Of a stretch of 22,209 nt of DNA, positions 18,001-22,209 are shown piece after piece. Made by a program: the position numbers. The stretch lies in UHGV virus genome UHGV-1596397; one strand, given 5' to 3'. Every line of letters begins with the position of its first letter. Position 1 is the first letter of the stretch. The stretch is from a virus.

Positions 18001-21000
18001 CTCTATGAACAAAGGACCCGTTTTATCGCAGACATATTCTTTGGTTAAGGATGGAAGCGAAAACGAGTACAGTCCGTGGGAATCATGGATATCTGATGTA
18101 GCGGATCATAAGGTTGAAATGTGGCGTACATTTTCTTCTGTTGATGAGCTGGGGGAGTTATCGCCCGCAGAAATAGAGTCAATGGACATAATTTTTGGTC
18201 AATATGGAGGTTGGGATGCGTTCAGGCTTTGTGATGAAACTCACAGAATTTGCGGTGAGTGGCGCGATCCGCATGGTTCATCAATTCCAATCAGCCTTAA
18301 GGATATATTTATTGCTCTTGGAAAGTCGCCAGAAGCAGCAACAGTAATGGCGAATAGCATTTATGCGCAAAATAATCTTGATATATTATTAAGTGATCTG
18401 AGGTAGTCGGGATGATGTTCAGCCCTTATTTGTATTTACCGGGGAGGGAAGATGTTTAATTCCGATTCCCCGGCTCCACAGGCCTAACCTAACTTTATGT
18501 AACAGTCCATGCAGGGCTGAAATCTGCCTGCTGAAATAACTCCGTTAGCCCGCTAATCTGCTTTAACCTCAGAACTTCATCCTGGTCCATCCCCAGTTCT
18601 GTTCCGATACGTTCATCAGTCCAGCCAAGACGTGAAAGATCTCTGACAATATCAGACATTGAGGTTATCTGGTGTTTCCCCCTGGCTCTGTTATGTCGGA
18701 TAGTCGCGGCAATACGTGAGGTTTGTCCCTTTCGGTCTGGATTAATACAGGTTACTGGTAGCCAGCCTTTCAGGCGTTTTCCAGTAACTGTTCTTCTACC
18801 TAGTAACTGCCTATGAAAACCATCCACCACCAGGTAATGGCTTGTTTCTTCCGAAACAACAATTGGTTGAGTAAAACCGTCTTTTTCCAGAGATTGTTTC
18901 AGTAATTTTTTTTCGCTTGGGGCCATGACATTGGGATTATAATCGTTAGCGACAATTTCATCCGCTTTTACCCACAGCACACAGTCCACTGGTTCTTGAG
19001 CAAAGGGGCTGATCTCATGGAGTACGCAGCGGAGATGGTTCAGGGCCTGTATGGTTTTCTCTTCAGATTGTTCCTGACTGAAGTACTGTCGAATCATCTT
19101 GCTCAGCACCTCCACCTCTGGTGTCACAGAATTCCCCATTCCTTCCTCCTTTCATTCATACGCTGCAGGTAACGTTCATAGTGCCGGGGTTTGTTGGGGC
19201 TGAAGGAGAGCGTTCGGCACCAGAAATCATTCTTTATGAGAGTCTTACAAATACGTCGCCAGGAGGGAACATCCCGGCAGCCCAGATCATTTTCCTGTTC
19301 ATCCGGGATATCATCCGGGAATCCCCGGTTCTGATACCAGCGCAGGTAAACTGCTATCTTGTTGCGGTAGTGTTCAGCCGTTCTTTCCGGCATTACGTCC
19401 AGCAGGAAGAACGCATAGCTGCGCCAGGTATGATGGGATGGTTTTGACATCCGTTTACGCAGGGCAAAATAGGCCCCGCTTTCATTGGCATAAAGAGCCC
19501 CACTGGCAGCACCAGATACTCGTTCACACATCCGTGCCCAAGTTTCTGGCTCCAGAACATGATAAAGCCATAGTCCCTTACGCTGTTCCGGGCCAAAAGG
19601 CTCACAGACACGCATATTACGTAGAGGAATGCCTGCACGGTACATCAAATCATACAGAGGATTGTAGATTGCACAGGTTTTAGCGTTATATACCCAGATA
19701 TCGTTGGTTTTCCAGTCATACAGCGGATACATGGTGTAGTAAAAACCTTCAGGTGACGCCGTGGTCCAGGGTTTATCATCTGCATATCTCAGTTTTCGTT
19801 GGGAAACCAGTCCCATAAATCTGTTAAGAGATTCATCCGCGCGGACTCCAGTCAGTATTGCCACGCTACATTGGTTACTTGCGAACCAGGAAGAAAAAGC
19901 TGGGACAAATTCTTCAAAAGTCATGGCGTAGCGGTAAAAGGGGAAATACGCCATATCAGTAATAGCATCTTCCGGTGGCTGTCGAACCCACTCTACACCG
20001 GGCTCCCAGCATATCCACTCAGGCTGAAACTGCGAGACACCATTTACTGTCGTCAGGGGAAGTGCAACCCAGTAAAAGGTATCTGTTACATCTTGGTACA
20101 TCATCCGCATCTTCTGTATATGATCAATGGTGCATTGATACTGGGCTTCCCAGTCAATGAACAATACAGAAAAACGACGTTTCTTCCTGTAGGCCACTTC
20201 GGCTACAAGATGGAAAAGTACAGTGGAATCTTTACCGCCAGAAAAAGATAAACATACAGAAGAGAATGTTTCAAACAACCATTCAATGCGGTGAATGGCT
20301 GCTGACAAAACATCTTCTCCAGTTCTGATTTTTGTTATAGTTACCGGCATACAATCTGATAAAAATAGCGAGGGTTTGCATTTTACCTAGTAACGTTATG
20401 TAACTATTTTTTTGAATAAAGGCAATGAGATAATGATAAAAAATGTTTATCTAATGTACTGAGCTCTTCTCTTTATTGTATTAACTCTTCGATTTCAGCG
20501 GCGTTGTCGTTCAGGTATAAAAAAAGGAGCCGAAGCTCCTTTGGTATCAGAATTCAAATTGTCTTGCCCGCAGGCTTTTCAGCATTGGTCTGGCCCGCTG
20601 AACTACGAAACTCGACTGGTCAAGCCGTGCCGCCTCTCTCAGTAGCACATCTCTGTTCTTCGTCACCATGTAGATAGTCTCAAACGCAATGTCATACAGC
20701 TTGTTCGTGTATGAGGAGTTCAGCTCTTTCATTATGGGGTACAGCTGCTTGCTAAGGTCCTGGGCTTTTTCCATCCAGAGCTGCATGTAGCAAAGGAGGA
20801 TGATTTCCTCGGCTGTGAATTGCGGCTGTGGTTCTGCTTGTACTGGCTGAATGTTGCGAAGTTTCTTTTCGCACTCGATGAAGTAGCGGCGGATCTGGCG
20901 ACCTTTTTCGTTACGTTCAACCATCGCAAGCTCTTTGGCTGTGTCGAGGGTGAGGTGGTAATCCTTGCGGCGGCGGCCTGGAGTTTTCGCCAAATTTGGC

Positions 21001-22209
21001 GAAAATAGAATGTAGTCTAAATTTTCTACGAATCCATACTCGTTTAGCCTGGCCCGTATCCAGTTAGAAAAATCTTTACCTACCTCTAAAAATCCATGCA
21101 AATCACGCGCGTTCACCAGAAGCGTAGGTTCATTTGAGATTGTACCTTCAAACACAGGGATGAGTTGAGTGGTCATGATGACCTCCTTTGGCTTTTTTCG
21201 AGAAATGCCACCACAAGATGTGGTGCCGGGAGGCTCGAAACGGCCCAAAAGATACCGCGGACTTATTCCCCTTGCGGGTGTTGTATTCGTCGCCCTCCCG
21301 ACATTGATCGGGGATGTGACCGCACACTGTGCTATCACTGAATAACAGGCATAAAAAATCCAACACTGACGGGGTTGGTTTAATCCGCTTTTGGGAGGTT
21401 TTCGAGGCCTCGGCGCGGAGTATAGTCAGTATTGGACGCAGTCGTCAACCATCGCAAGCTCTTTGGCTGTGTCGAGGGTGAGGTGGTATTCCTTGCGGTT
21501 GTGACCGCCTCTACCTTTTGCTTCCCGAATTTGGGAAGCAATCATATAGTCCTGATTTTCAACGAAACCATATTCAGCAATACGTTCTGTTATCCACGAT
21601 GCAAAGCGTTTACCAACCCCAAGGAAAGCGTGTAGATTGCGAGCATTGCATAGAAGGGCTGCTTGGTTTGAGATAGAACCGTTGAATACGGGGATGAGTT
21701 GACTGGTCATGATGACCTCCTTATTTGTTTAGTTTATAACCGCCAGTTAGTAGCTGGCGGTCGGGTGTCAACTGAGCCAAATAAGAAGCTCTGGGCATAT
21801 TCCCCTTGCGGGTGTTGTATTACGCCTCTCCACCCGACCTTTGTACGGATGTAACTATGCCAAATTGCAGGCATAAAAAAGCCGCAAAGCTATCGGGTGC
21901 GGAGACCGCTTATTTGTTCAGTGCGATCAGTATGCGATAGCTCTGGCGGATTTGTCAAATCGTGCAGTAACATCCTTTTCTTCCTTGCCATTTCTCAATG
22001 ATGACAAAGGGTGGATTCGGATTGGTATTGGGACAAAAGTGAGACACACAAAGCTTTGCATCGGCTTACAAAGCTTTGCATGTTTTTCAATGTTGGGACG
22101 TGTGAGCGCAGAAATGACGGGCTATCTAATTGATTTTAAACGATACGTAACCAACTTTAAAATCTTTGCACGCCAGTTCGCAGGTTTTACAGCCAGTACA
22201 GCGGCTGGA

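Follow-up and report, generated by a model that had tools for sequence, protein, structure and literature searches.

The stretch of viral DNA described here, UHGV virus genome UHGV-1596397 (22,209 nucleotides (nt); "the window" refers to this whole stretch), includes the end of a lambdoid, Shiga toxin (Stx)-phage-like prophage that is inserted in ynfG of Escherichia coli. This end is the ant region, where two antirepressor (ant) gene starts lie in tandem, one belonging to an intact gene, ant1, and the other to a truncated open reading frame (ORF) of 94 amino acids (aa). We consider it likely that each of these starts is preceded by a complete antisense cassette of the c4/IsrK type organized around an RNA of the sRNA-Xcc1 type, and that the tandem arrangement arose by fusion. 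Antisense control of the c4/IsrK type is known, whereas an Xcc1-type RNA in such a cassette, and with it a different reading of the sRNA-Xcc1 family, would be new. A preliminary description of the window had suggested RNA-level control of antirepressor translation on the basis of a conserved 23-mer and two hairpins. Such control appears well supported by locus-specific complementarity, but it would act through the hairpin-2 loop and the joiner of the RNA and not through the 23-mer or those hairpins.

Each cassette has the same order of elements, namely a sigma-70-like promoter, a1/b1-like boxes with a weak hairpin followed by six U residues, an RNA of 86-89 nt, a small hairpin, a2/b2-like boxes, and the ATG. 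Every element of both cassettes is carried by the minus strand, and in each cassette the second a2/b2-like box overlaps the Shine-Dalgarno sequence. The same arrangement of promoter, box, and hairpin is present in other loci. The elements in the window, in the direction of transcription, are:

21929-21958, minus strand: promoter of cassette 2, sigma-70-like (TTGACA-18-CATACT), at the same position relative to the leader boxes in other loci.
21906-21923, minus strand: a1/b1-like box of cassette 2 (CACTGAACAAATAAGCGG), whose complement in RNA2 lies in the loop of hairpin 2 and the joiner.
21875-21902, minus strand: leader hairpin of cassette 2 with U6 (CCGCA...TGCGG CTTTTTT), weak and terminator-like, predicted to end a short leader transcript.
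21751-21839, minus strand: RNA2, sRNA-Xcc1, 69.1 bits, with closing stem, hairpin 1 (the 23-mer is its loop), hairpin 2 (b'-like loop CUUCUUAUUUG), and a'-like joiner.
21740-21760, minus strand: hairpin 3 of cassette 2 (CCGCCAG CTACTAA CTGGCGG).
21716-21734, minus strand: a2/b2-like target and Shine-Dalgarno sequence of cassette 2 (AACTAAACAAATAAGGAGG).
21419-21448, minus strand: promoter of cassette 1 (TTGACG-18-TATACT), whose -35 element overlaps the last 4 nt of a repeated core described below, which is the fusion junction.
21385-21407, minus strand: a1/b1-like box of cassette 1 (CCTCGAAAACCTCCCAAAAGCGG).
21353-21378, minus strand: leader hairpin of cassette 1 with U6 (CCAAC...GTTGG ATTTTTT), conserved in sequence across many loci.
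21217-21302, minus strand: RNA1, sRNA-Xcc1, 73.4 bits, with hairpin-2 loop UCUUUUGG (b'-like) and joiner UUUCGAG (a'-like).
21209-21225, minus strand: hairpin 3 of cassette 1 (CACCACA UCU UGUGGUG).
21182-21202, minus strand: a2/b2-like target and Shine-Dalgarno sequence of cassette 1 (CTCGAAAAAAGCCAAAGGAGG).

The two RNAs were identified by an Rfam scan of the whole window. Exactly two matches were returned, both to sRNA-Xcc1 (RF02221; curated gathering score 53 bits) and both spanning the full-length model, and their whole-window E-values of 6e-12 and 7e-11 indicate that they are not chance matches. Members of this family form a three-way junction consisting of a closing stem, hairpin 1, hairpin 2, and a single-stranded joiner, with a CACC-type 3' tail. 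Covariation over 205 distinct RNAs, measured by comparing cognate with non-cognate strand pairing, supports the closing stem (z = -16.8) and the hairpin-1 stem (z = -9.5). When 98 RNAs were aligned with MAFFT and folded with RNAalifold, hairpins 1 and 2 emerged, whereas the closing stem was lost owing to misaligned RNA ends, and for this reason the cognate versus non-cognate duplex tests were used instead. The minimum-energy fold of RNA2 is the family fold (z = -3.2).

A search with the loop motif (AATACAANACCCGNAAGGGGAA), which had been proposed in the preliminary description, matched at least 120 entries in each of two collections, viral contigs and species-representative genomes; the family-wide counts given here and below are counts among the matches listed. 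The 23-mer is conserved, and its location about 90 nt upstream of the two starts was also given correctly, since it ends 89 nt before each ATG (21176 and 21710). Its role is a different one, because the 23-mer is the invariant hairpin-1 loop, which lies outside the predicted target pairing. Similarly, the two different strong hairpins to which attention had been drawn both exist (21209-21225 and 21740-21760), but they represent the conserved third hairpin that follows the RNA rather than the part that pairs with the ribosome-binding site (RBS). Across the family, the closing stem is generally followed immediately by a hairpin (168 loci, median z = -2.0).

Within the hairpin-1 loop (21265-21287 and 21799-21821), a GNAA tetraloop of the GNRA class closes an inner CCC/GGG stem, which is flanked by AAUACAAY and GAAU. 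Possible roles for this loop include processing, protein binding, or a tertiary contact. Variant RNAs with the hairpin-1 loop AAUACAAUACCCUUUCGGGAAAUA were encountered in two other loci, L010 (about 6640-6740) and L117 (in the upstream cassette), and these fall below the Rfam cut-off. They retain matched a1b1, loop, and RBS boxes (TCTGACG / CGTCAGGAG), which indicates that the family is broader than the Rfam model.

The evidence for antisense control comes mainly from the pairing of each RNA with its own surroundings. The hairpin-2 loop is the reverse complement of bases located 5' of, or overlapping, the Shine-Dalgarno sequence of the next gene, and the two vary in step from locus to locus, as in the loop/leader pairs CTCCATGGG/CCCATGGAG, TCCAACG/CGTTGGA, TCCTCTGG/CCAGAGGA, and CTCGTTGA/TCAACGAG. 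About 170 distinct loci show an RNA complementary to its own Shine-Dalgarno leader. For 78 distinct viral loci, the hairpin-2/joiner segment pairs with its own RBS leader at -19.3 kcal/mol, compared with -12.4 kcal/mol for non-cognate leaders (z = -20.9; 0 of 2000 permutations), and in the independent genome set the corresponding values are -21.6 and -16.4 kcal/mol (n = 95, z = -16.3). The same segment is also matched to the region upstream of the RNA, as tested on samples of 50 loci per set, where cognate and non-cognate energies are -26.3 and -20.1 kcal/mol in viruses (z = -13.3) and -35.2 and -24.7 kcal/mol in genomes (z = -18.9).

The RNAs of the window conform to this pattern. RNA1 pairs with its own RBS leader (CTCGAAAAAAGCCAAAGGAGG) at -19.8 kcal/mol, versus -10.5 kcal/mol with the RBS of cassette 2, and RNA2 pairs with its own RBS (AACTAAACAAATAAGGAGG) at -20.9 kcal/mol; both of these cognate duplexes extend over the Shine-Dalgarno sequence, and by hand 11 base pairs between CAAAUAAGGAG and CUUCUUAUUUG cover that of cassette 2. 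With its own upstream box (21385-21407), RNA1 pairs at -31.1 kcal/mol, and RNA2 pairs with its own box (21906-21923) at -26.3 kcal/mol versus -11.5 kcal/mol for the upstream region of the other cassette. Both leaders were folded, as the preliminary description had proposed. When the upstream box is left out, the minimum-energy fold of cassette 1 pairs the antisense segment to the RBS leader (CUCGAAAAAAGCCAAAGGA), whereas in the full leader the hairpin-2/joiner region pairs with the a1b1 box instead. Folding of cassette 1 thus reproduces a switch.

These observations suggest the following mechanism. Pairing of the hairpin-2 loop and joiner with the a2/b2 boxes would hide the RBS, leaving the antirepressor untranslated in the lysogen. 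The a1/b1 boxes would compete for the same RNA segment and thereby relieve repression, and they could do so either on the short leader transcript or within a longer transcript that reads through and carries them in its 5' part. Processing and stability of the RNA, its action in trans, translational repression, and the function of the leader as an anti-antisense RNA are all proposed by analogy with P1 c4, the CA RNA of N15, and IsrK/STnc1160 of Gifsy-1.

Of the features that define the c4/IsrK type, three were found in both cassettes of the window. The RNA lies between a promoter and an antirepressor gene on the same strand; it has a' and b' segments that are complementary to downstream a2 and b2 sites, with b2 located on the RBS; and the same segments are complementary to upstream a1/b1 sites that are followed by a terminator-like hairpin. 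The definition also includes a small ORF (icd or orf45) whose RBS is the target and to which ant is translationally coupled, and an RNA that is released from the leader by RNase P and determines immunity in trans. The annotated order of elements in the immI region of phage P1 is promoter, a1, b1, c4 RNA, a2, b2 on the icd RBS, and ant. An Rfam scan of P1 (L123) gave 68.8 bits for C4, 51 bits for c4-a1b1, and 35 bits for isrK on the stretch formed by a1b1 plus the terminator (3231-3312; cut-off 50); within P1 C4, the hairpin-2 loop corresponds to b' and the joiner to a'. The window resembles P1 and P7 c4 in its one-strand order of promoter, a1, b1, terminator-like hairpin, an RNA of about 80-87 nt, a2, b2 on the RBS, and an antirepressor operon. 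The layout of the RNA is shared as well, with its closing stem and pair of hairpins, its target-pairing segments placed in the loop of hairpin 2 and in the joiner, and its CACC-type 3' tail. The closing stem, however, is 9 base pairs (bp) in the window and about 17 bp in c4, and hairpin 1 has a large invariant loop (AAUACAAYACCCGNAAGGGGAAU) where c4 has a plain UUCG hairpin. Furthermore, the window carries an additional hairpin after the RNA, its target is the ant RBS itself without an icd-like ORF, and no C1-type operator was identified there. The c4 RNA is reportedly processed and stable.

In phage N15 (L246), isrK (62 bits, 4415-4490) and C4 (78.8 bits) matches are located directly upstream of an operon that ends in a Bro-N antirepressor. 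The likeness to the window lies in the combination of an isrK-type leader with a C4-type RNA (the CA RNA) upstream of an antirepressor operon, and the leader hairpin of cassette 2 occupies the place of the isrK-type terminator in P1 and N15. Unlike the window, N15 uses another RNA family as judged by covariance models and carries small ORFs before the antirepressor. Because the isrK model matches the a1/b1 leaders of P1 and N15, IsrK can be regarded as the leader element of c4-type systems; isrK lies outside the Rfam clan that holds C4 and c4-a1b1. In phage P4, a processed RNA (CI RNA, seqB) is likewise flanked on both sides by complementary sites (seqA and seqC), but P4 controls replication genes by premature termination and not an antirepressor RBS. 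The mechanism in N15 and P4 is reportedly based on termination. In phage P22, the immI region (sar, Mnt, Arc) also uses an antisense RNA to block antirepressor translation, and ant1 shares the P22_AR_C domain, but transcription of sar crosses the ant RBS on the opposite strand, and no such arrangement was seen in the window.

In Gifsy-1 (isrK-STnc1160-orf45-anrP), the short IsrK RNA, a terminated leader with complementarity to a downstream sequence, acts as the switch for translation of the antirepressor operon orf45-anrP, and a processed, stable RNA, STnc1160, lies downstream (PMC4825925). Although the isrK model corresponds to a leader made of a1b1 plus terminator, it misses the window, and Gifsy-1 works through orf45 and translational coupling. 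An IsrK-C4 immunity system has been described for P4, P1, P7, N15, and some lambdoid prophages (PMC3632133), and P4 seqA and CI RNA have been described as structural homologues of IsrK and C4 RNAs, respectively (PMC3632133, PMC4825925). In the account of Ravin 1999 that is given in PMC3632133, a processed small RNA controls the antirepressor of N15. No paper linking sRNA-Xcc1 to c4-type control was found in a literature search.

Several results weigh against placing the two cassettes in the c4/IsrK group. The Rfam model for C4 (RF01695, clan CL00128) gave no match in window positions 21100-22000 at E <= 10, and neither did isrK (RF01394) nor c4-a1b1 (RF03163) in the same interval at the same threshold. 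As a consequence, the likeness to c4 is one of architecture and not of detectable sequence, and the RNA is not filed under C4. There is no icd/orf45-like small ORF in the roughly 40 nt between the RNA and the ant ATG. The leader hairpins of both cassettes are thermodynamically weak, the fold of RNA1 surpasses those of its shuffles by a modest margin only (z = -1.6), and RBS pairing in cis is absent from the minimum-energy fold of the cassette-2 leader. Orthogonality is also incomplete, because RNA2 pairs with the RBS of cassette 1 at -17.8 kcal/mol. Outside the window, loop/RBS complementarity is not obvious by eye in loci from Xanthomonadales. Finally, the identity of an abundant RNA of enterohaemorrhagic E. 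coli (EHEC) EDL933 with the 933W ant leader could not be confirmed.

The genes that follow the RNA provide a further line of evidence. In nearly every locus an ORF with a Shine-Dalgarno sequence begins 102-120 nt after the start of the motif. Among 90 distinct viral downstream ORFs, 81 are of the antirepressor type (KilA-N 20, AntA 16, P22_AR_N 13, Bro-N 13, Rha 10, and ORF6N 9). The corresponding fraction in species-representative genomes is 50 of 108 (KilA-N 2, AntA 1, P22_AR_N 4, Bro-N 33, Rha 7, and ORF6N 3), and the other ORFs in this set include one SymE toxin and a family without Pfam match that is typical of Xanthomonadales. The matched genomes represent alpha-, beta-, gamma-, and delta-proteobacteria, Acidobacteria, Bacteroidota, Planctomycetota, and Verrucomicrobia.

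Published reports have placed sRNA-Xcc1 upstream of an ORF6N protein in APSE phages (10.1101/2020.03.17.996009) and upstream of symE in Xanthomonas integrons (10.1101/2025.06.18.660453). In L131, L140, L146, L195, and about 30 further Xanthomonadales loci, the RNA is followed by the protein family without Pfam match (MSTFDSDDLETTGYFLPEDSQLRLK...), and these loci may work differently. Pairs of sRNA-Xcc1 RNAs that are only 243-305 nt apart on one strand were observed in L083 (1183-1515), L101 (7028-7357), and L185 (4914-5301). Because this spacing leaves too little room for a normal-size gene between the RNAs, the pairs look like RNA-only cassettes stacked before a complete one. In Xylella fastidiosa Temecula1, five tandem copies of sRNA-Xcc1 recur with a period of about 381 nt (PMC12189769).

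Two other explanations for the RNA deserve consideration. It could be a cis-acting leader only, in which the 5' untranslated region sequesters or exposes the RBS within the same molecule and no processed trans-acting RNA is made. The RNA and its target are about 40 nt apart on one transcript, the minimum-energy fold from RNA1 through ATG+20 pairs the hairpin-2/joiner region with CUCGAAAAAAGCCAAAGGA, and the full leader pairs this region with the a1b1 box, as a three-state switch would. However, the architecturally equivalent CA, CI, and STnc1160 RNAs are processed and stable (for STnc1160, PMC4825925), an sRNA-Xcc1 locus of EHEC yields an abundant discrete RNA (PMC5331693), and RNA-only modules without a following ORF exist. 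We consider an exclusively cis-acting leader rather unlikely, and it would in any case be a sub-case of the antisense cassette and not an exclusive alternative to it.

At the other extreme, sRNA-Xcc1 could be a trans-acting, Hfq-type small RNA (sRNA) for host or virulence genes whose place upstream of ant is incidental. The window RNAs belong to the same covariance-model family as sRNA-Xcc1 of Xanthomonas campestris, both scoring above the cut-off, yet the latter is described as integron-borne, trans-acting, and controlled by HrpG/HrpX. The published descriptions from Xanthomonas and Xylella take sRNA-Xcc1 to be a trans-acting, virulence-associated sRNA (PMC2996969, PMC12189769), and Chen 2011, to the extent that it is cited in these two papers, also treats it as trans-acting. 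Against this stand the covariation of the variable loop with the RBS of the gene about 40 nt downstream in about 170 distinct loci, the nearly fixed distance between RNA and ATG, and the predominance of antirepressor-type genes downstream in viruses. A fixed host target would not let the seed change from locus to locus. A host-directed function with an incidental location seems highly improbable, and antisense control of the adjacent gene is the preferred interpretation.

The second part of our proposal concerns the origin of the tandem, for which the following features are needed:

21426-21710, minus strand: truncated upstream ant ORF, 94 aa, AntA only (ORF and Pfam); its final 7 codons and stop are cassette-1 promoter sequence.
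21445-21498, minus strand: 54-nt core repeat, upstream copy (direct-repeat search), encoding RKEYHLTLDTAKELAMV.
20547-21176, minus strand: ant1, intact antirepressor-family gene, 209 aa, with AntA and P22_AR_C (Pfam, PGAP).
20917-20970, minus strand: 54-nt core repeat, downstream copy inside ant1, running on into a conserved ...ERNEKGRQIRRYFIECEKKLR block.
20523-20542, minus strand: intrinsic terminator after ant1.

Tandem paralogous ant starts with a period of about 530 bp, each with its own leader, had been noted in the preliminary description, and the period is found to be 528-534 nt. A direct-repeat search showed that the two copies of the 54-nt core are identical at 53 of 54 positions with a spacing of 528. 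Self-comparison, a check suggested at that stage, reveals repeat structure beyond the core, including a 29-nt repeat that contains the 23-mer (21259-21287 and 21793-21821, spacing 534) and a 21-nt repeat (21341-21361 and 21863-21883); two other repeats from the search, D4 and D6, look like chance matches. In the leader the two units are 57-58% identical, and the corresponding figures are 71% for the RNA and 61% from the RNA end to the ATG. Within the coding region, identity is 78% over the first 12 codons, 61% over the rest of the N-terminal part, 98% in the core, and 46% after it. Together with global alignment, these values show that the units are homologous over their full length with a sharp peak at the core, and the earlier report of a near-identical core between diverged flanks is therefore correct.

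The nature of the core becomes apparent from other ant alleles. In intact alleles, the core is the first 54 nt of a conserved 3' block that runs on (...MVERNEKGRQIRRYFIECEKKLR), and the region preceding it is variable. In the short ORF this block is cut between GATGG and TTGAC, and TTGACG is the -35 element of cassette 1. In other loci, cassette homology starts exactly at the -35 element and the upstream DNA is unrelated. These two observations indicate that a truncated ant was fused to a second cassette at a TTGA microhomology. The truncated ORF ends in ...YHLTLDTAKELAMVDDCVQY, with 7 codons and a stop after the shared ...ELAM motif, and its tail VDDCVQY is translated promoter sequence. The early end of the second copy was thus real, although 8 codons had been counted where there are 7 codons plus the stop.

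An exact counterpart lacking one unit exists. When the sequence predicted to result from deletion of the 528-bp unit was used as the query, E. coli SCU-104 matched it contiguously at 99.8%. This strain carries a single intact ant of 211 aa at the same ynfG site, and its N-terminus is 100% identical to the 94-aa ORF. Its flanks match the window at 765 of 765 positions on the right and at 98.8% on the left. The view that the identical segment marks a recombination junction is borne out by this one-unit-less state and by the contact of the segment's 3' end with the -35 element of the next cassette. In the history we propose, ant would have been cut just after codon 87 and joined at the TTGA microhomology to the -35 element of a cassette with a different RNA/target specificity. 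A locus with two cassettes and one with a lone intact gene could then change into each other, in either direction, through gain or loss of one 528-bp unit between the repeats. Of 5426 complete E. coli genomes, 86 carry the junction, and in a sample taken at even intervals from the 168 matching genomes the promoter half of cassette 1 never occurred without the core. Three different alleles of the truncated copy were found, each with an intact frame of 94-95 aa and its own matched set of RNA, a1b1, and a2b2, which shows that whole cassettes are exchanged between phages.

Could a functional element at the nucleotide level, for instance an RNA target or a site of protein binding, account for the identity of the cores in place of common descent? 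The core is the sharpest identity peak in the unit, and its 5' end, CCGCAAGGA(A/T)TA, is similar to a portion of the hairpin-1 loop of the RNA, CCCGCAAGGGGAATA, when both are read in the same sense. However, other ant alleles differ at 3-13 of the 54 core positions, mostly synonymously, which also implies that the identity of 53 of 54 positions is due to recent common origin or homogenisation and not to protein constraint alone. Within one genome the two cores differ at 0 (L010), 1 (the window), or 4 (L104) positions, the last of these being difficult to reconcile with such an element, and in intact genes the conserved block merely continues beyond the core. A nucleotide-level element is therefore very unlikely. 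The resemblance itself, which extends over CCGCAAGGA(A/T)TACC (21487-21498 and 20959-20970) compared with CCCGCAAGGGGAATA (21265-21279), is probably due to chance. A more serious contender is that the upstream cassette, comprising RNA2 and the 94-aa ORF, is a functionless recombination scar with a pseudogene that persists only because it is recent. The ORF is called a pseudogene missing its C-terminus by PGAP and likewise a pseudogene in the Stx2a_F451 annotation, its final 7 codons consist of promoter sequence, other loci commonly have truncated downstream ORFs, and SCU-104 shows that an intact single-gene relative exists. On the other side, the junction recurs in 86 of the E. coli genomes and in a viable phage, PhiR5_2, the AntA domain of the ORF is nearly complete, and cassette 2 closely resembles the cassette of the Stx2 phage VT2-Sakai, which presumably works. 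The three truncated alleles also keep their frame and matched RNA elements, yet allele replacement could preserve a frame without selection; recombination with intact genes exchanges these alleles, so that an intact frame is a poor indicator of selection. We regard a functionless scar as quite possible, though somewhat short of probable. The 94-aa ORF may be a relic, its RNA cassette has an intact appearance, and the RNA-only tandem modules seen elsewhere are compatible with the hypothesis of spare RNA cassettes kept for trans-immunity.

The protein products were assigned with Pfam. AntA (PF08346; cut-off 27 bits) matches ant1 with 93.6 bits and the 94-aa ORF with 89.8 bits (E = 1.8e-25), and in the latter the match covers profile positions 1-66 of 68. 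The preliminary description had named Bro-N as the domain retained in the short copy. This assignment must be replaced by AntA, because Bro-N (PF02498) gave no match at E <= 0.01 in either protein. P22_AR_C is present in ant1 residues 119-181 (33.4 bits; cut-off 22.4) and was not found in the 94-aa ORF by the Pfam scan. The start of ant1 at 21176 agrees with PGAP (209 aa). The putative antirepressor role of ant1, which is inactivation of a repressor, is taken from family annotation only. A supposed derivation of the name AntA from the N15 antirepressor genes was not borne out, since N15 gp30 is a Bro-N protein and gp32 is Ash-like.

The ant gene adjoins the prophage attachment site. The region is 100% identical to several complete E. 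coli genomes and to Escherichia phage PhiR5_2 over 1739 nt. For the equivalent ends of Shigella phage 75/02 Stx, POCJ13, and Stx phages including VT2-Sakai, the identity to the region is 86-92%. From promoter to ATG (window 21700-21960), cassette 2 matches the ant cassette of VT2-Sakai (L002) at 257 of 261 positions, and its RNA and target boxes are identical to those of VT2-Sakai. The window prophage and VT2-Sakai would therefore share RNA specificity. Two antirepressor genes known from Stx-phage work, ant of phage 24B (before the qut site; PMC3064807) and d_ant (downstream of R; PMC4426718), are in different loci and were not used as evidence.

Other features were noted near these cassettes. 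A palindromic 14-mer, ACAAAGCTTTGCAT, is present as two direct copies 20 nt apart (window 22044-22083), about 90-130 nt upstream of the cassette-2 promoter and near the prophage/ynfG junction, and this pair might be bound by a protein, perhaps a regulator or a recombination factor. The stretch upstream of the ant region (window about 16300-20350) is identical to a locus of E. coli G1/2 that is annotated with a frameshifted giant ORF containing an LPD38 domain, a Panacea-domain protein, and an IbrB-like and PAPS-reductase (IbrA-like) pair, the PAPS reductase being located at 19124-20350.

By its own covariation, sRNA-Xcc1 is, as judged from sequence comparison, a local antisense regulator of the next gene. 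The family would thereby gain a concrete function, having appeared in the literature as a trans-acting sRNA with a link to virulence in plant pathogens, as a cargo of vesicles, and as an anonymous RNA of EHEC EDL933 that is among the most abundant and is not covered by ribosomes (PMC5331693). Host or plant target predictions for sRNA-Xcc1 accordingly merit reconsideration. Because one RNA module precedes antirepressor-type genes with six different N-terminal domains in several phyla, it may represent a general solution for silencing antirepressors. The matched loop/target pairs would also constitute a natural library of orthogonal translational repressors.

For Shiga-toxin phages, in which induction equals toxin release, an ant gene next to the attachment site would be under this predicted control. 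Since prophages share or differ in RNA specificity, cross-talk between them is predicted. A more far-reaching view, which we offer as speculation and judge unlikely in its full form, is that sRNA-Xcc1 RNAs are phylum-spanning c4-like antisense repressors that are respecified through one loop and two boxes, and that stacked cassettes are kept as "anti-antirepressor" immunity arrays with several specificities. If so, these arrays would include cassettes whose protein gene is truncated or missing. Acting in trans, RNA2 would keep Ant silent in incoming Stx phages whose leader is of the same type, and the prophage would influence induction of co-resident or superinfecting Stx phages. Recombination between the 54-bp repeats, with loss of the 528-bp unit, would then change the RNA specificity that governs the sole intact ant.

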